Below are positions 297 through 8,622 of a stretch of 64,000 nt of DNA, in pieces; position 1 is the stretch's first letter, and each line of letters begins with the position of its first letter. The position numbers and the translations under genes were made by a program. Origin of the DNA: a virus (lineage: Duplodnaviria > Caudoviricetes); the IMG/VR virus record IMGVR_UViG_3300009185_000001, positions 64,001-128,000 of that record. The stretch is one strand, 5' to 3'. The notes beneath the pieces were generated by a model, which did not search any database, was not told where the DNA came from, and saw nothing but the letters and a program-made list of their open reading frames with translations.

Positions 297-2543
297 ATGA
301 CAGTAGAAGAATTTGATCAATATCTAAAGAATCAAGGAATTGAATCCGTTGATTCCAAAGAACTTTTACGAACAATTTTAGGAGTAAAAATCTTTAATAT
401 TGAAGAAACTAATGAAAAAATTTCTCAATTGAGAGAAAGTATTTTGGATTCTGCTACTAAAACTGCTTCCAAAATAAAAAATAATGTAGAAAATATTGAT
501 CAGAAGAAGGCTGTTAGTGATTTATTGGGAATTCCTGTTGAGAAAGTAGACTCCACCCCACTTAATATCTTAAGAAAAGATCTATTATCAAAGGTATTTG
601 AAAATTTTAATCAAATAAAAAATGAATTAACCGCTAATAAAGAATCTGTTAAAAGTAATATAACAGATCCTTTTGGAATGTCAGATAATTCTGATTTTAG
701 AAAAGAATATAGGAATAAATTAGCAGAAACTTGGGAAAATATAAAGAAAAATATAAGTGGTTCTTCTGAAAATGTATTCAGCAAGGTTTTTTCTACTGAA
801 ACTCCTTTCACATCAAACCCAAATGGCCCAAGTGGTAGTAATGATCCATTAGATCAGCTAATAGAAAACTTGACCAAATTAACTTCGAAAAAACCTTCTT
901 CTAAACCCCCAATTCCACCTGAAAATAATAATTTACTTGCTATAATTATTAATAAACTTGATGAAATTATTAAAAATAAACTTAATACACCTACTAAAAA
1001 AAGTCAAACACAAGAACTTTATGAAGTTGGTCCTAAAAAATTTAGACTCGATGAAGATTCTATAATAAGAATTACAAAGGGATTGAATCTTTCTAGCGAA
1101 CAACAGGAAAAACTTTTATCCGCATTATTAGCTGAAACAAGGGAAACCAGAGGAGAATTTGGAAAACTTAGTAGTTTTCTCACACAAAAAGGAAATGGTC
1201 TTGTAGATATACTATTCGACTTGGCTACTTTAACGGCAACAGGTGTTCTAGGACTTCTTTTTGGAAAGGGAATACTAAAGCTTGCTGATAGTATTTTTGG
1301 AACTGATTTGGTTGGACTTTTTGAATCAGTAACAGATCCATTAAAAAAATTTGGTGGTTATATCTTAGATGGAATGAAAGCTCTTATTTCATTTTCTGTT
1401 GTTCTAATGAATATAACGAATGGAGCAACAAATATTTTAACAAAAGGACTTAAAAATGTACTTAATGGTCTTACGGAAGCTGGTAAAAGTATTAGATCCG
1501 TTCCCAAATTTGTTAGTAGTTCATTTTCAAAAATGACTAGTGGATTATTTGGTGCAGGAAAACTTGCTGGAGCAGTGGGAACAACTGCTGTAGCAGCCTC
1601 CGAGACTGCTACAGGAGCAACAAAAGCTCTCGGAGCAGTTGGAGCAGCTGAAGGAGCTGTTGCAAGTGGAGCAACTAAACTTTTATCAAAAGCAGGACTA
1701 GGATTTCTCTTTAAAGGAGCACTGGGGGCTGTATTTAGAAAAATACCTCTTATCGGTGCTTTTATTGATGCTGGAGCAGCAATATCAAACATTATGAGTG
1801 GAGATACGATAGGAGGAACATTAAGAACTATTGGTGCTCTTGGCAATATTTTAAGCATGTTTCCTGGATTTGGTATTGTAGGATTTGGTGTTTCTTTACT
1901 TGCTGATTTTTTAGATGATGCAATGACAGAGGAAGCAGGTGGTGATGTTACGAAAAAAAATACAAATATATTTGCAACTATGTCAAAAATTATATCTGGT
2001 TGGGGGGAATCAATTTGGAAATGGATTACAAAAAAAGTAAAATCTATACTCGGATTTGCTCCTGATGAAGACGAGTCAGCGGAACCAAAACCAATGGAGC
2101 CTGAAACAAGCACAAGCAGTTCTAAAGTAGTTGAAAAGGCAAAGGAAATTTCTTCGTCAAAAACACAAACAGAATCAACAGAATCTAATGAAATTGATAA
2201 AATGTCTGCCGCAACTGGAATAAATTTTAGAGATTTAATTAAAATGAATTTGAATCCAATGTCAATTCCTTCTGCACCTCAATTAAATGTAAATGATATT
2301 GCAAAGAGTTCGCAATATTCCATATCAATGCCAGAGTCTATTGGAATTAATAATTCATCTATGCAAGGTATTATGGATATGATTTCAAATTCTATGGGGC
2401 AGATAATGCCAAGTCAACCCGTGTCGATTGCTGGCGGGGGCGGTAATGCAAATATGACTGATATGTTTATACACGGTTCTAGAGATCCTATATACGATAC
2501 GCGATCTGATTGGTGGGGAGTTTTAAATAAAAGGAAATGGTAA
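297..2543 (+). CDS. Tape-measure / baseplate hub tail-length determinator (gp29-like)
   Basis: 748 aa; long Ala/Gly-rich amphipathic and hydrophobic segments (GAVGAAEGAVASGATKLL, RKIPLIGAFIDAGAAI); tail module context. Confidence 0.6.
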   Translation: MTVEEFDQYLKNQGIESVDSKELLRTILGVKIFNIEETNEKISQLRESILDSATKTASKIKNNVENIDQKKAVSDLLGIPVEKVDSTPLNILRKDLLSKVFENFNQIKNELTANKESVKSNITDPFGMSDNSDFRKEYRNKLAETWENIKKNISGSSENVFSKVFSTETPFTSNPNGPSGSNDPLDQLIENLTKLTSKKPSSKPPIPPENNNLLAIIINKLDEIIKNKLNTPTKKSQTQELYEVGPKKFRLDEDSIIRITKGLNLSSEQQEKLLSALLAETRETRGEFGKLSSFLTQKGNGLVDILFDLATLTATGVLGLLFGKGILKLADSIFGTDLVGLFESVTDPLKKFGGYILDGMKALISFSVVLMNITNGATNILTKGLKNVLNGLTEAGKSIRSVPKFVSSSFSKMTSGLFGAGKLAGAVGTTAVAASETATGATKALGAVGAAEGAVASGATKLLSKAGLGFLFKGALGAVFRKIPLIGAFIDAGAAISNIMSGDTIGGTLRTIGALGNILSMFPGFGIVGFGVSLLADFLDDAMTEEAGGDVTKKNTNIFATMSKIISGWGESIWKWITKKVKSILGFAPDEDESAEPKPMEPETSTSSSKVVEKAKEISSSKTQTESTESNEIDKMSAATGINFRDLIKMNLNPMSIPSAPQLNVNDIAKSSQYSISMPESIGINNSSMQGIMDMISNSMGQIMPSQPVSIAGGGGNANMTDMFIHGSRDPIYDTRSDWWGVLNKRKW

Positions 2544-2549
2544 TAATAT

Positions 2550-3929
2550 ATGGCTAATAATGTAAACTTCAGTTTATTTACAGTAACAGAATCTGAAACC
2601 ACAAATTCTATTGGTTCAACATTTAAATATCCAAAAATATCCAAAACCGGAGATGGATATATAGACATAGTAAAAGATTTTTATTGGAAGAATAATGTAT
2701 CGAATAATATTGATGAAGTTCCCTCCGTTACCTTGAAGGAATATACTTTAAAATATGGAATGTGGGCAAACAATCTTGCAAGCATTATTAATCAAGCCAC
2801 CCAATTCGCATCAAGTAAAAATAATTTAGACCCCTATTCAACATTATATTTTGGAGAACCAACAGGGTTTATTTATAGACTTCCACATTTGTTAAAATCT
2901 GGATCAAGTATAAGAGGAGATATTAGCAATAGCTGGTCTGAAATAAGCAATCCGATAGGTGATATATTAGCTGCGGTTCCAGTAGTTGGAAGTTCAATTA
3001 AAAGAGCAGGAGATCTTATACAAACTCAAGCACAAAACGCAGCAAATTTTTTAACACCCGGATACGGAGCAGAAAAGGTATATAACTTTGGAAAAACAAA
3101 CTCAAAATCAATAGTAATTACATTTCCTCTTTATAATACTTATAGCGAAGAAAGTGCTATGAAGAATTTTAGTTTTGTAAATTTAATTTCAATTCAAAAT
3201 TTAAAGACTAGAACAAGTTATTTAACATATATTCCACCAAAATTATACACTGTTGATAGTGATTTATTGGGAGGCATTTATATGCCAGTGGCTAGTATTA
3301 CTAATTTAAAAATAGATAGTATAGGAACGACTAGAAAAATAAACGAATATACTGCTGATAATTCCCGAAATGGTGTTCTTATACCTGAAGCATATAGAGT
3401 AAGCATAACATTAACAGAACTATTACCAGAAAGTAGTAATATTATGATGGGTGCATTGGGTGGCGATAAGGTTCAGGTATTTAGTGAAGTAAGTCCTAAA
3501 AATATTATAAACAATGCAGTTTCCCCTAAGCCATCAGCAATTGCAACACCATCCGATATTAATATACCAAGTCCCAATTTTGACAGATTTTCTCGTACAA
3601 CTTTTCAGTCTATCCCAACATTCACAAACGGAGGAACTTCTACAACAGGGTTTCCAGCGGGAGTTGGTCCAACAATTAATGTTCCAGAAGGTGCATTAGG
3701 CCGTAACTTTCAAAATGTTCCTCAAGGAAGTACTGGTCCCTCAGTAACCCTATCCGAGCAAGCAGGTCCAAGCACAGGAAAGCCATCTCCTTCTTTAGTA
3801 TATAAACCACAACCTGCTCCTCCACCCATTACCAAAGGAGGACAGCCATTAGGACAGCAATTACCTTTAGTTCCTCTTAATGGTAATCCGCTTCCATTGG
3901 ACGTAACGCAATATCAAATTAAATTATGA
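2550..3929 (+). CDS. Baseplate tail-tube cap/initiator (gp48/gp54-like) with Pro-rich C-terminal extension
   Basis: Tube-protein-like core (SIVITFPLYN...YIPPKLYTV...ASITNLKID...PEAYRVSITLTEL); follows tape measure, precedes gp53-like gene. Confidence 0.5.
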   Translation: MANNVNFSLFTVTESETTNSIGSTFKYPKISKTGDGYIDIVKDFYWKNNVSNNIDEVPSVTLKEYTLKYGMWANNLASIINQATQFASSKNNLDPYSTLYFGEPTGFIYRLPHLLKSGSSIRGDISNSWSEISNPIGDILAAVPVVGSSIKRAGDLIQTQAQNAANFLTPGYGAEKVYNFGKTNSKSIVITFPLYNTYSEESAMKNFSFVNLISIQNLKTRTSYLTYIPPKLYTVDSDLLGGIYMPVASITNLKIDSIGTTRKINEYTADNSRNGVLIPEAYRVSITLTELLPESSNIMMGALGGDKVQVFSEVSPKNIINNAVSPKPSAIATPSDINIPSPNFDRFSRTTFQSIPTFTNGGTSTTGFPAGVGPTINVPEGALGRNFQNVPQGSTGPSVTLSEQAGPSTGKPSPSLVYKPQPAPPPITKGGQPLGQQLPLVPLNGNPLPLDVTQYQIKL

Positions 3930-4282
3930 GACAAAACGATTTTACAGATTTATCAAAACTTTCAATGTATAGATATGAAACATTTTTCAATATATATACT
4001 GATAATGATGATTTTAAGTTCTATAATTTACTAAGAAATATTAATCTATTTCCCGCAAATAACTCAGAAGTAGAAGTTTCTTATAACACCAAATATAATG
4101 ATACTTGGCATTTAATATCTTATAAATATTATAATACTATGGATTTATGGTGGTTAATATGTGCTTATAATCAAATACAAAATCCGGTTAAAATGCCAGA
4201 AGTTGGAACTGAATTAAAAATTTTAAAAGCAAATTATGTTTCTACTATCATTTCGGAATTGAATAAACAAATCGGTAGGTAG
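3926..4282 (+). CDS. gp53: Baseplate wedge protein gp53-like (LysM-like)
   Basis: NDTWHLISYKYYNTMDLWWLICAYNQIQNP...GTELKI matches the gp53/LysM-type pattern. Confidence 0.7.
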   Translation: MRQNDFTDLSKLSMYRYETFFNIYTDNDDFKFYNLLRNINLFPANNSEVEVSYNTKYNDTWHLISYKYYNTMDLWWLICAYNQIQNPVKMPEVGTELKILKANYVSTIISELNKQIGR

Positions 4283-4300
4283 TATTTTTTAATGTTTTTG

Positions 4301-4306
4301 TAAATA
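4301..4306 (+). promoter_or_regulatory. Late promoter core (TAAATA) of terL-N
   Basis: 6 nt before ATG; the same motif recurs before many late genes and gp55 is encoded. Confidence 0.55.
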
Positions 4307-4312
4307 TTCTTA

Positions 4313-4723
4313 ATGCCTAGAAAAAAGAAAGTAGAAGAAAATTCCTTAGATGATTTAGATATGGATGATATTCTTGTAGACGGAAAGTTCTATCAAGGAA
4401 ACGAAAACATCCTTCGCAAGGATGCATTGTTTAAATGGACGGATGACATGAAAGCAGAGCTTAGACTTTGCGTTAAAAGTATTTTGCATTTTGCAGAAAG
4501 TCACTTCTACATAATAACCGAAGATGGTAAGAAGAAAATAGAACTTTATAAGTATCAAAAAAATTTGTTAAAAGCATTTAAGAATGAACGATTTAACGTT
4601 GTATTGAGTTCTCGCCAATCAGGTAAGTGTTTGGCAAATAACATTTTAATAAAAATAAAAAACAAAAAAACTGGTGAAATAGAAGAGATTACGATAGAAG
4701 AGTTTTATAATAAATTTAATTAA
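4313..4723 (+). CDS. terL: Terminase large subunit N-terminal fragment (N-extein, 105 aa) fused to split-intein N-fragment
   Basis: gp17-like ELYKYQKNLL...RFNVVLSSRQSGK (Walker A lacking its Thr), then CLANNILIKIKNKKTGEIEEITIEEFYNKFN* (intein block A, Cys1 at 4628). Confidence 0.9.
   Translation: MPRKKKVEENSLDDLDMDDILVDGKFYQGNENILRKDALFKWTDDMKAELRLCVKSILHFAESHFYIITEDGKKKIELYKYQKNLLKAFKNERFNVVLSSRQSGKCLANNILIKIKNKKTGEIEEITIEEFYNKFN
4628..4720 (+). mobile_element. Split intein N-fragment (IntN, 31 aa)
   Basis: Begins CL directly after the Walker A Lys; has the intein N-terminal pattern GEIEEITIEEFY; followed by a stop codon. Confidence 0.88.
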
Positions 4724-4765
4724 AAAACATACTAGAAAACATTTGGCAAGAGAGTAAATATATTC

Positions 4766-6130
4766 ATGACCATTCATGAATTACTTAAAAAGTGTAAAAA
4801 AATTAAAAAAACAAATGGAGAATCCGCCGCTATTGATTTTTATGATACACAAATATTTTCCACAAATTTTTGTCCAACTTGTAAGGTGACTGGCAAAAAA
4901 TTATCATATGATAACTGGTCTGAATACTTTACTATATGCGGAGCAGCAGTCAAAAATGCACTTAAAAAGTGTGATAAAAATATAGAAAAGGCCAAATCTA
5001 TAATAGAAAATGAATATATATTTGTAGAAGAACTTTGGGGATTTTATTCAGATTTTAGGAGTTTATCTACAGCAATAGGAAAAAGAAAACTAAATCCTTC
5101 TCTTAACATCTCTTTATATGAAAAATATTTTAAAGATAAAACCAAGTGCTGTTTTCCTAGTTGTTATAATAAAGTTCCACATGAATTATTAAGATTAAAT
5201 TCTTGTTGTCAAACTCACTATAATCAAAATATTAAAATTAAAAAGGGAGAAAAAACGTTAGAAGATTATTCACATGAATGTAAAATTTGTAATGAAAAAT
5301 TTGCAAATTCCTCGCATTTAACTATTCATATAGAAAAAAAACATATGAAAGCAGAAGAGTATTATTTGAAGTATTTTTCTGACGCTAGAGGATCGTGTAA
5401 ATGGTGTAACAAGCCGACAAAATTCATAAGCATAACAAATGGCTATTGTGATTTTTGTTATAATACAAGTTGTAATATTGATTATCATAACAAATATCAT
5501 AATAGGCATAAATGTGGAGAAATTATCTCAAAATCATTAAAAGAAAACAAAAACATGCCAAATCAAAAAGAATATTGGATGAAAAGAGGTATGGACGAAG
5601 AAAATGCTATAAAAATGGTATCTGAAAGACAAACCACAAATAGTATACCAGTTATAATGAAAAGAAATAAATGTTCTAGAAAGGAAGCCGAATATATAAG
5701 ATCGGAAATAACAAAAAAATGGTTAGATTCATTTCCATGTTTAAACTATAGCAAAGTTTCACAAGAATTGTTTTGGAGTATTTATGAAGAATTAAAGAAA
5801 ACTTATAAAGAAATATATTTTGCTACTTTTAATGGTGGTGTTAAAGATGATTCAGGGGCTAATCATGAATATAAAGTTAAAACTAACGATTCTTATAAGA
5901 AATTAGATTTTTATATAAAAGATATAAATAGAGCTATAGAATTTCAAGGAACCTATTGGCACAGTGAAAGAAATACTAGAGATAAATTTTCACCAGAAAA
6001 AGATTTAATAAGAGAAAACCAAATAATAGACTCGCTTGGATGTAAAATACTAAATATTAAAGAGCTAGATTATTACGAAAATAAAGAAAAAACTGTCCAA
6101 AAATGTTTAAATTTTTTAAAAAATGAATAA
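4766..6130 (+). mobile_element. Free-standing putative homing endonuclease (Zn fingers + Vsr/DUF559-like PD-(D/E)xK C-terminal nuclease) between the intein halves
   Basis: C2H2 finger CKICNEKFANSSHLTIHIEKKH, further CxxC pairs, C-terminal KLDFYIKDINRAIEFQGTYWHS...LGCKILNIKE; own TAAATA at 4755-4760. Confidence 0.75.
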
Positions 6131-6479
6131 AAAAGAAAAAATAATACAGACTTATGATGTTTCTGACTATGAAATAATGACAGATGATGGTTGGAAAGAT
6201 ATAACTCATGTACATAAAACCATTCCCTTTGATATATGGCATTTAGAAACTGATGGTGGATTATTTATTGATTGTGCAGATGAACATATCGTGATAGATG
6301 AATTTGGAAACTCCGTATATGTTCAAGATTTAAATATTGGTGATAAAATAAAAACAATTAATGGTATAGAAAAAGTAAAAAATGTATTTAAAACAGATTC
6401 TTTGCCAGCAAACATGTATGATGTTACTGTTAATAGTAAAAATCATACCTTTTATAGCAACGGAATATTGTCTCATAAC
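6123..6479 (+). mobile_element. Split intein C-fragment (IntC, 119 aa)
   Basis: Block B-like CADEHIV, block F MYDVTV, block G SNGILSHN with His-Asn at 6474-6479, +1 Thr. Confidence 0.9.
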
Positions 6480-8021
6480 ACCACAACCATAACTATTTAT
6501 GCATTATGGTTAGTATGTTTTCAATCTGATAAACGAATAACAATTGTAGCAAATAAAGAAGCTACTGCTAAGGAAATATTTGCTAGAATTAAAATGGCAT
6601 ATGAACAACTTCCTATATATTTAAAACCCCCGATAAAATCTTGGAGAAAAGATGGTTTTAATCTTGGAAATGATTCGGCAATAACTGTTAGTACAACATC
6701 ATCATCCGGACCTCGCGGAACTACAAGTAATCTTTTAATTATTGATGAGATGGCTCACTGTCCTAATGATTTGATGAAAGAACTTTGGAGGTCTGCTATT
6801 CCAATTATTTCATCGATGAAAAAGTCGCAAATTGTTGTTATTAGTACTCCAAATGGAACTGATAATAAATTTTATGAACTTTATGAAGATGCTAAAAAAG
6901 AAAATAGCGAATGGCATTTAGAGGTTGTTAATTGGTGGGATGTTCCCAGTAGAGATGAAGAATGGAAGACAAAAACACTGGCTCTCATGGGATCTAAGGA
7001 GGATTTTGAACAAGAATATGCCAATAAATTCCACGAAGCGGGAAAGGGCGTTATTGATGAAGAATATCTAGCTCAATTAAAAGCCAGTTGCTCAGAACCT
7101 GTATTATCTTTAGAAAATGGAGCTTATCAAATATTTAAACTGCCCAATCCAGAGAGTTTCTATGTTATAGGAGTTGACGTTGGAGAAGGAATTGGAAGAT
7201 CAAATTCAGTTGCACAGATATTAGACGTTTCAAATTTACAAGATATTCAACAAGTTGCTCTATTTGCTTCAAATAATATAAATCCATTTCATTTCGGAAC
7301 TCGTTTGATGGGAATTTTACAGGATTGGGGAAGACCTCCAATTCTTGTTGAAAATAATAATAATGGTCAGCAAATTTTAGATGTTTTATGCCAAACTCAC
7401 AACTATGAAAATGTTGTTTCATATCATTTTGAAGGATTTAGTAAACACTATAACAATGCTAATAGATTTGGTATACACAATCATACAAATACTAGATATA
7501 AAGGAATAACAAATTTTAGATATTGGGTTAATAGCTTAAAAGCAGTGAAATTAAATGATATTGAAACATTATTAGAAATAGATAATTTTATTCGACTTCC
7601 AAATTTTACATATTCAAAAAAATCTGATAAATATTTAGATGATAGAGTTTTTGGACTTATTTGGGCATTATTTATTCTCGATCCTTCATTGGTTGGAAAA
7701 TATTTTAACATTTTAGACATAGACGATCAGGGAAGACCTATGAAAATTTTTCCAATTTCAGATAATAAAGAAATTATTAAGAATAGTCCTTTATTAATAG
7801 GAGGAGGACAGACAATTGTTAGAAAACCTTCTATAAATACTCCATTTTCACATGTCGGTGACATGGATATGGCCTCTGGATTTGATTTATATTCAGATGA
7901 TAGAGCGGCTCTTACCCAATGGTTGTTGGAAAGTGATGGTCCAGATCGTATGTTGCCTCTAAAAGCTGATGAAATGGATAAGTCTTCTATGGACACATAC
8001 CATCCAACTATAGTTTTTTAA
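6123..8021 (+). CDS. terL: Split-intein C-fragment fused to terminase large subunit C-extein (rest of ATPase plus RNase H-like nuclease)
   Basis: First 119 aa intein-like, ending MYDVTVNSKNHTFYSNGILSHN|TTT; then Walker B LLIIDEMA, VVISTPNG, FEQEYANKF, nuclease VIGVDVGEG and DDRVFGL. Confidence 0.92.
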   Translation: MNKKEKIIQTYDVSDYEIMTDDGWKDITHVHKTIPFDIWHLETDGGLFIDCADEHIVIDEFGNSVYVQDLNIGDKIKTINGIEKVKNVFKTDSLPANMYDVTVNSKNHTFYSNGILSHNTTTITIYALWLVCFQSDKRITIVANKEATAKEIFARIKMAYEQLPIYLKPPIKSWRKDGFNLGNDSAITVSTTSSSGPRGTTSNLLIIDEMAHCPNDLMKELWRSAIPIISSMKKSQIVVISTPNGTDNKFYELYEDAKKENSEWHLEVVNWWDVPSRDEEWKTKTLALMGSKEDFEQEYANKFHEAGKGVIDEEYLAQLKASCSEPVLSLENGAYQIFKLPNPESFYVIGVDVGEGIGRSNSVAQILDVSNLQDIQQVALFASNNINPFHFGTRLMGILQDWGRPPILVENNNNGQQILDVLCQTHNYENVVSYHFEGFSKHYNNANRFGIHNHTNTRYKGITNFRYWVNSLKAVKLNDIETLLEIDNFIRLPNFTYSKKSDKYLDDRVFGLIWALFILDPSLVGKYFNILDIDDQGRPMKIFPISDNKEIIKNSPLLIGGGQTIVRKPSINTPFSHVGDMDMASGFDLYSDDRAALTQWLLESDGPDRMLPLKADEMDKSSMDTYHPTIVF

Positions 8022-8022
8022 T

Positions 8023-8622
8023 ATGAATCAATCAATTTTAAATAGATCTAGAAATGACAAATTCAAACTTGTTATGGATTTGCCAATAGCATTAAAAAGA
8101 AAACAAGATCTTGTAATGGAATCAAATTACAATGCAGATCAAATTCAATTTACTACATTTGGATCTCCTGTACCAAGTATAAAGGTAAATGAAATTAAAG
8201 TTCCTTTTGGAGGACAGGTTTATAATGCATCTAGTATATCTCGTCCTGCATATGACTCTTTAACTTTGAAATTTTTAATTGATAATGGATATCAAAACTA
8301 TTGGATACTTTGGAAATGGTTGAATCTTTTTAATAATAGTGAAGATAGTTCCACTACTTTAACAGAACCAGTAATAATGGAAATTGACGATATGCGATTA
8401 ACAAATCCTATGTCAGATTTTACGACTACTTTTAGTTTATTTGGTTTAGATGAATTTAACAATAAAATAATAGAATTTAAGTATACACAAGCATTTATAA
8501 CTAGTTTAAGTCCTATTGAATATTCATTTCAAACTGCAAATGAAATTATTTGTACTGCAACTTTTGTTTTTAATCAATTAAATATTTCTTTATTAAAGGA
8601 TATTAATAGTTCTAATTGTTAA
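8023..8622 (+). CDS. Tail completion/tube terminator gp3-like (tail-tube fold)
   Basis: FKLVMDLP...PSIKV...YDSLTLKFLIDNGYQNYWILWKWL...FITSLSPIEY...CTATFVF resembles the gp3/gp19 family. Confidence 0.55.
   Translation: MNQSILNRSRNDKFKLVMDLPIALKRKQDLVMESNYNADQIQFTTFGSPVPSIKVNEIKVPFGGQVYNASSISRPAYDSLTLKFLIDNGYQNYWILWKWLNLFNNSEDSSTTLTEPVIMEIDDMRLTNPMSDFTTTFSLFGLDEFNNKIIEFKYTQAFITSLSPIEYSFQTANEIICTATFVFNQLNISLLKDINSSNC

Follow-up and report, generated by a model that had tools for sequence, protein, structure and literature searches.

The window analysed here, a stretch of 64,000 nucleotides (nt) corresponding to positions 64001-128000 in a virus record of 202,880 bp, carries the gene for the large subunit of the packaging terminase, terL, in two pieces that are separated by a putative homing endonuclease gene and bear the halves of a split intein at their facing ends. 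At this locus, the list of open reading frames (ORFs) contains three ORFs on the same strand, 4313-4723 (136 amino acids, aa), 4766-6130 (454 aa) and 6123-8021 (632 aa), the parts of which are compiled in Table 1 with coordinates referring to the window. The first ORF encodes the terL N-extein and a short N-terminal intein fragment (IntN), while the third encodes a long C-terminal intein fragment (IntC) followed by the C-extein and starts 8 nt before the end of the nuclease gene. An earlier note on this DNA had described a first terL piece ending 31 aa after SRQSGK and a second one opening with 119 aa that end in SNGILSHN|TTT (vertical bars mark intein-extein junctions), and all of its coordinates and sequence readings agree with the ORF list.

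Table 1. Parts of the split terL locus, in window coordinates.
Feature	Position	Strand	Description
terL N-extein	4313..4627	+	105 aa, ends with SRQSGK, the first half of Walker A
IntN	4628..4723	+	31 aa (4628-4720), Cys1 at 4628-4630, stop codon TAA at 4721-4723
Non-coding spacer	4724..4765	+	42 nt between IntN stop and endonuclease start
Free-standing homing-endonuclease-like gene	4766..6130	+	454 aa
IntC	6123..6479	+	119 aa, ends with FYSNGILSHN; terminal Asn codon 6477-6479
terL C-extein	6480..8021	+	513 aa and stop; +1 Thr first (TTTITIY...), then Walker B and nuclease domain

Both exteins are readily recognized as parts of a T4-type terminase. The N-extein matches the terminase large subunit in PHROG (1.6e-17), the C-extein matches Terminase_6N in Pfam (1.1e-11) and PHROG terminase families, and the codons ACC ACA ACC (6480-6488) that directly follow the IntC asparagine encode the residues TTT. 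In a large protein collection, uninterrupted TerL relatives have lengths of 612-629 aa and all of them read SRQSGK|TTT(I/V)T(I/V)(Y/F)A across the predicted junction. One of these intact proteins, P0003, is 92% identical, comprises 618 aa, i.e., exactly 105+513, and reads SRQSGK|TTTITIYA; the N-extein is 92% identical to its residues 1-108 and the C-extein 95% identical to its residues 102-618. Since junction and length of the intact relatives are those of the predicted spliced product, the split arrangement is not a matter of chance, and the aligned homologues bear out the proposal that splicing would restore an SRQSGK-TTT P-loop.

The virus record, a freshwater T4-like phage genome with direct terminal repeats, is rated complete. 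No second terL was detected in this complete genome, in which an intact TerL query matched the two pieces only (residues 1-108 and 102-618). The whole 3.7-kb stretch is present without interruption in contigs of two other studies, with 130 and 158 differences, and is consequently not an assembly artefact. It was found in freshwater and lake metagenomes of 12 studies, and proteins of about 630 aa with the same N-terminal IntC occur in at least 10 protein clusters.

IntC contains the intein blocks B (CADEH), F and G (SHN) and constitutes a Hint fold without its first strands and helix, while IntN is the counterpart, in alignments with contiguous and AceL-type inteins, of block A and helix alpha1. 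The curated NCBIfam model for intein C-terminal splicing, TIGR01443, assigns 25.8 bits to IntC at a cut-off of 15.6 and 31.6 bits in the genome search. Among PDB sequences, IntC alone matches VidaL, gp41-1 and CatC, and an IntC profile matches VidaL at 1.2e-6. For the AlphaFold model of IntC (predicted local distance difference test, pLDDT, 85.7), the 46 PDB folds matched at E ≤ 1e-3 consist entirely of inteins and intein-like Hint (BIL) domains, with VidaL (6VGV; TMq 0.79, root-mean-square deviation 1.2) and gp41-1 (6QAZ; TMq 0.76) as best solved matches and the Cat structure 6DSL also among them. Both VidaL and gp41-1 stem from phage-like metagenomic fractured genes as well, but they reside in other host proteins, and VidaL is split earlier (S1, 16-aa IntN) and gp41-1 at the canonical site. 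Several features of a class-1 intein are present: Cys1 follows immediately after SRQSGK, and a penultimate His, a terminal Asn and a +1 Thr (SHN|T) accompany the Hint fold.

Seven alleles (window, L004, L006, L007, L009, L010 and L011) were compared at the DNA level. IntN comprises 31-35 aa and IntC 118-119 aa in this set, and in spite of intein divergence of up to 33%, Cys1, the block-B His (CADEH), the block-F Asp and His as well as SHN|T are invariant in all seven. NG86 estimates of omega are 0.06-0.20 for IntC and 0.13-0.27 for the C-extein, and the intein is under purifying selection. In the window, the TAA at 4721-4723 makes IntN four residues shorter than in the 35-aa alleles, and the remnant IntN codons together with the ancestral TAG (4733-4735) remain in frame; the IntN of L006 likewise has 31 aa. 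The last four residues of a 35-aa IntN must thus be dispensable. When the two halves were submitted to complex prediction as IntC(1-134) and TerL-N(91-136), the score was 0.84 as opposed to 0.00 for the best of three controls, a result in support of binding; of the solved complexes, 51 of 78 attain the mark applied to such scores, as do 2 of 108 mismatched pairs. Contacts agreed between runs by at least 85%, partner pLDDT was at least 75, and block B and the two junction residues take part in the modelled IntN-IntC interface.

A number of observations weigh against reading the locus as an active split intein. The Pfam intein models did not reach significance on any of the three ORFs (Intein_splicing, E 0.48), such that the check by intein hidden Markov models suggested in the earlier note succeeded with TIGR01443 and failed with Pfam. 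Block B, commonly TxxH, reads CADEH; the His is kept and the Thr is replaced by Ala, as is also the case in alleles from Ackermannviridae. The omega of IntN, which offers few sites, is noisy (0.11-0.81). The docking result may owe something to the predictor already knowing the Cat complex (6DSL); as a like complex has already been solved, it documents likeness rather than proof.

With these points taken into account, we consider it highly probable that terL is fractured by an atypically split class-1 intein between Lys and Thr of Walker A and that the pieces are joined by protein trans-splicing, and we infer that packaging depends on this reaction. The terminase is almost certainly functional by way of the predicted trans-splicing. 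In the proposed course of events, a mobile cassette would have invaded the single terL of the phage, bringing a class-1 mini-intein in between Lys105 and Thr106 of the Walker A loop, the mini-intein itself being interrupted after its first helix by a Vsr-like homing endonuclease gene. Two polypeptides would be made, TerL(1-105)-IntN(31 aa) and IntC(119 aa)-TerL(106-618), the translation of the latter probably being coupled to that of the nuclease gene via the 8-nt overlap. Insertion of IntN into the near-complete IntC would complete the Hint fold, and formation of a thioester at Cys1, attack by Thr+1 and cyclisation of Asn119 would release a TerL of 618 aa, seamless and with its SRQSGKTTT P-loop intact. 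The nuclease would serve as the mobility engine of the cassette and would not be required for splicing. A scan of 4200-6300 for sigma-70 promoters and terminators returned sites no more numerous than in shuffled sequences.

With regard to the interposed gene, the encoded protein combines a C2H2 zinc finger (about 5273-5344) with a Vsr/DUF559-like PD-(D/E)xK nuclease domain at its C-terminus (about 5870-6115). Among homologues of the interposed ORF, six of six match PF18741 (REase_MTES_1575), one of six DUF559 and four of six zf-C2H2. A fold search with the C-terminal domain ranks I-Bth0305I (3r3p; E 3.2e-3, TMt 0.64) first and also lists Vsr. Among the Vsr-like homing endonucleases, a group first described from fractured genes, I-Bth0305I is the representative with a solved structure, and the fractured-gene/intron context is shared; on the other hand, the fold match is weak (16-20% identity), there is no match at the sequence level and the N-terminal DNA-binding part differs. 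Searches of PDB sequences with the nuclease, both as single sequence and as profile, returned zinc-finger matches only, while PHROGs and NCBIfam returned none. The omega of the gene is 0.16-0.27, and the ORF is best described as encoding a putative free-standing zinc-finger/Vsr-like homing endonuclease.

Two alleles, L006 and L009, are without a nuclease gene, be it lost or never present, and the distance from IntN stop to IntC start amounts to 33 and 45 nt, respectively. As these alleles are still split, the split form is stable and evidently functional in the absence of the nuclease. In L009 (605-655), both terL ORFs share one frame with a single TAG and 15 sense codons between them, so that one substitution separates this allele from a contiguous mini-intein; in L006, two in-frame stops lie between the terL ORFs. 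Read-through of stop codons, yielding a contiguous intein, was considered and rejected, because the terL ORFs of the window are in different frames and L006 has two stops, leaving L009 as the sole allele with a single TAG. Comparison of the window with L006 yielded a dN of 0.044 for IntC vs. 0.30 for the C-extein, and nucleotide identity to L010 is 85-89% in the cassette vs. 60-65% at the gene ends. A cassette more alike than its flanks between several loci fits horizontal spread, although a conserved ATPase core would also yield part of this gradient.

In addition to splicing as such, it had been suggested in the earlier note that trans-splicing could gate activation of the terminase. Such timing or conditioning might, for instance, work via the stoichiometry of the halves or a Cys1 sensitive to redox state. 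What speaks for this extension is indirect: the intein sits in the catalytic P-loop, the precursor is hence certainly inactive, and inteins in P-loops have been proposed to splice conditionally (PMC4760082, PMC5050341). However, close relatives with 92% identical TerL have no intein, conservation is higher in the cassette than in its flanks, in keeping with a selfish element that has spread recently, and the K|T site is occupied in other relatives by an unrelated class-3 maxi-intein, which points to a favored homing site rather than a regulatory adaptation. These three observations point to a tolerated selfish element, and we regard gating as unsupported and unlikely.

It is more improbable still that the intein halves merely dimerise and hold the TerL pieces together without splicing. 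A precedent exists in the split NrdA of phage Aeh1, which works without an intein (cited in PMC2677866), and the replaced block-B Thr could be taken in the same sense. Nevertheless, an unspliced domain of 150 residues between the Walker A Lys and Thr is hard to reconcile with ATP binding, and binding alone would not need the invariant Cys1, block-B His, penultimate His, terminal Asn and Thr+1.

A third explanation places the joining at the level of RNA, with the nuclease gene inside a self-splicing intron and a continuous mRNA for an intein-containing or intact TerL. Group I introns are known to harbour Vsr-like nucleases (PMC2677866), and an intron was invoked for the similar terminase of Campylobacter phage IBB_35 (PMC3322345). 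For the locus studied here this is very improbable. No Rfam intron family was detected over 3900-8600 even at E ≤ 1, the sole match being a chance miRNA; non-coding sequence amounts to just 42 nt upstream of the nuclease ORF and to zero downstream. Furthermore, the alleles without nuclease retain in-frame stops within a gap of 33-45 nt that is too short for a group I or group II intron, and the codons of IntN and IntC on either side evolve under purifying selection at the protein level. Metatranscriptome contigs cover parts of both exteins without bridging the junctions and speak neither for nor against joining of RNA; short A-rich "joints" seen in such contigs were dismissed as low-complexity noise. 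Equally remote is a dead terL, inactivated by a selfish insertion in a defective or helper-dependent virus. Although the genome is known from metagenomes only, it is complete and has terminal repeats, purifying selection acts on exteins and intein halves alike in at least seven diverged loci, the arrangement recurs across many samples and studies, and equivalent arrangements exist in cultured, plaque-forming phages.

The layout of the locus, read as a trans-spliced fractured gene, is in itself already known. What is new is the insertion site, the distinct lineage and the Thr at +1. Just as in the fractured genes described by Dassa, London, Stoddard, Schueler-Furman and Pietrokovski in 2009 (PMC2677866), an N-extein with IntN, a free-standing endonuclease and an IntC with C-extein follow each other on one strand, the origin is a phage and the nuclease is Vsr-like; the 42-nt spacer falls within the 27-51 nt of the published loci, and alleles without nuclease are found here (L006 and L009) as well as there (gp41-7). 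The same survey contains a gp17-like terminase locus from Lake Gatun, later termed GOS-TerL, with an exceptional IntC of 122 residues (PMC2677866), which shares with the window the unusual break point and an IntC that lacks only motif N1 (122 vs. 119 aa). Differences concern the hairpin located before the endonuclease start in 15 of 16 published loci (PMC2677866), an accessory feature for which no significant counterpart was found here (folding z-scores upstream of the nuclease start between -0.68 and +0.80 in five alleles), the C2H2 zinc finger in place of NUMOD-3 motifs, and the insertion site, lineage and +1 residue.

The atypical split inteins that protein chemistry employs derive from the Lake Gatun (GOS) and AceL-TerL loci and have Cys at +1 throughout. 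The AceL/Cat site was placed on the terminase by means of natural IMG/VR homologues, retrieved in a scan with a back-translation of NGIVSHN|C. L018 contains an intein nearly identical to CatC (PDB 6DSL) and reads VEFE|C(29 aa) up to a stop and, at the end of IntC, SHN|CEFLGS; a dozen of its relatives read QEFE|C...|C(E/D/H)(F/L)LGS. C-exteins of this type align from about residue 287 of the window TerL (FEQEYA|NKF; A286|N287; about 7020 in the window), which places the AceL/GOS/Cat site approximately 180 residues downstream of Walker A, whereas the window intein lies at K105|T106. The EFE|CEF junction with Cys+1 given for these inteins in the earlier note is accurate. AceL, GOS and Cat, the last of which is a consensus, share with the window intein a T4-type TerL as host, class-1 character, a significant match to CatC in sequence and fold, and the atypical split after helix alpha1 (S2), their IntN comprising 25-37 aa as compared with 31-35 aa in the alleles studied here; the end of the window IntN aligns with those of AceL-type inteins, and the atypical geometry of short IntN and long IntC was recognized correctly. 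They differ by Cys+1 as opposed to Thr+1 and, in the GOS type, also by Ser1. The identity of the window intein amounts to 26-31% with AceL/GOS-type inteins, 28% with a split intein at Walker B (L062), 34-42% with contiguous Walker-A mini-inteins from Ackermannviridae and 46% with the Walker-A split intein of L130. On the basis of site, Thr+1 and this low identity to the AceL/GOS type, the suspicion that a distinct natural split intein is present was justified.

L130, an IMG/VR contig, exhibits terL in three pieces (1598-5084, + strand) and combines Walker-A and GOS-type split inteins in one gene. Its Walker-A split intein (GK|CFSV..., IntN of 43 aa) is accompanied by a 312-aa homologue of the window nuclease, while the second, GOS-TerL-like one (Ser1/Cys+1, QEFE|S...SHN|CEFLGS) is without nuclease and its ORFs overlap. 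A third atypically split TerL site is located at Walker B in L062 (5215-8909) and L112 (..LDE|C, IntN about 42 aa, IntC ending in SHN|CAFIDD, with a 577-aa ORF between), and contiguous relatives of this intein, situated just before Walker B, are found in L069, L110 and L111.

At the Walker A site itself, the nearest non-split relatives are TerL mini-inteins of Ackermannviridae, annotated as intein in the Salmonella phages Maynard, Marshall and Mooltan. Site (SRQSGK|C...SHN|TT), Cys1, Thr+1 and block B (CAD(E/D)H) are the same, but these inteins are single polypeptides that splice in cis and have a variable loop of 10-50 residues at the break point. All split forms that were compared are broken at one structural point, after helix alpha1. 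The K|T position corresponds to the "classic" P-loop site TerL1-a of mycobacteriophages (PMC5050341). Among cultured T4-like Campylobacter phages, a P-loop mini-intein is split in F379 and IBB_35 and contiguous in CP220. The split form resembles that of the window in the insertion of a nuclease gene after alpha1 and in an IntN of about 30 aa; the site lies three residues upstream (PRQ|C...SHN|SSKS, Ser+1) and the nuclease is of another type. The Campylobacter arrangement was published as "intein plus intron" (PMC3322345). The unrelated intein at the same K|T site (SRQSGK|AL.L.TPI...IPTHN|TTT; P0036-P0039, P0045, P0082, P0083 and P0100) is of class-3 type and comprises about 349 aa within host proteins of about 967 aa; it starts with Ala, contains LAGLIDADG and has the Trp/Cys/Thr triplet typical of class 3 (..DHLW.., ..VRCITVD.., ..PTHN). 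Outside the window, the genome under study encodes another contiguous maxi-intein with LAGLIDADG endonuclease in the large subunit of ribonucleotide reductase (G000:C1:47128-50199, L145; TIGR01443 26.8 bits; Pfam Ribonuc_red_lgC, LAGLIDADG_3 and Intein_splicing).

A search with a profile of eight IntC sequences, in which clusters are representatives at 50% identity, retrieved 1168 representative clusters at E ≤ 1e-3 and 628 at E ≤ 1e-10. The lineage is thus abundant in metagenomes and also present in some cultured phages, and the rarity implied by the earlier note does not hold. Among the best 150 of the 1168, IntC is located at the extreme N-terminus in 110 (109 of them with Met start), and the +1 residue is Thr or Ser in all but three. 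In the same set, 119 of the 138 proteins with enough C-extein are TerL-like, and in 92 of these 119 the C-extein starts at residue 105-109 of the window TerL. Judged from motifs only, the remaining 19 resemble DnaB, SbcC/gp46, clamp-loader and ClpX P-loop ATPases that are cut just past the Walker A Lys. IntC-first proteins of the P-loop ATPase-like kind are P0140, P0155, P0160, P0167, P0170, P0193-P0197, P0209 and P0219 as well as P0224, P0231, P0236, P0237, P0252 and P0254. The recurrence of the IntC family across P-loop ATPases suggests a split-intein lineage specialised on P-loops.

Two cultured phages, Vibrio phage vB_VmeM-32 (KU160494.1; L139, L141) and Salicola phage SCTP-2 (MF360958.1; L138, L142), possess an IntC-first TerL with IntC ending in HN|T. 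The corresponding N pieces (..RQLGK|C..) lie 79 kb (vB_VmeM-32) and 173 kb (SCTP-2) away from the IntC piece on opposite strands, and neither record carries an intein annotation. In SCTP-2, a middle piece of 297 aa ends in an apparent second IntN (..SLLY|CLDGETTVKLRDK..). Recent reviews list AceL TerL, GOS TerL, VidaL and PolB16 as the only natural atypically split inteins, and a literature search returned no description of a split intein at the terminase Walker A, which is not proof of absence. It is a serious, if tentative, possibility that a large lineage of naturally atypically split, P-loop-specialised inteins (Cys1, Thr/Ser+1, IntN of about 30-35 aa) cuts GK|T/S of TerL and other phage ATPases, spreads with Vsr-like nucleases, persists after loss of the nuclease or dispersal of the halves, and is distinct from and maybe orthogonal to AceL/GOS/Cat.

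Interest in the finding rests on the size of this uncharacterised lineage, on a series of evolutionary stages and on a plausible candidate ligation tool. Natural stages are assembled at one site: the intein-less gene, the contiguous mini-intein that has a loop where other forms are broken, the intein split by a nuclease gene, the split form without nuclease, halves that lie 79-173 kb apart and a terL cut by two split inteins. On its predicted activity, an intein with Cys1, Thr+1 and a synthesisable IntN of 31 aa could reasonably be considered as an orthogonal ligation tool and, as the natural alignment is deep, also for consensus design. For phage biology, the reading proposed here would, if true, mean that an essential late packaging ATPase is routinely carried in pieces, with its ATP-binding loop completed by trans-splicing alone, and that a terL in pieces is the rule within this lineage, across hundreds of sequence clusters, including cultured phages without intein annotation.

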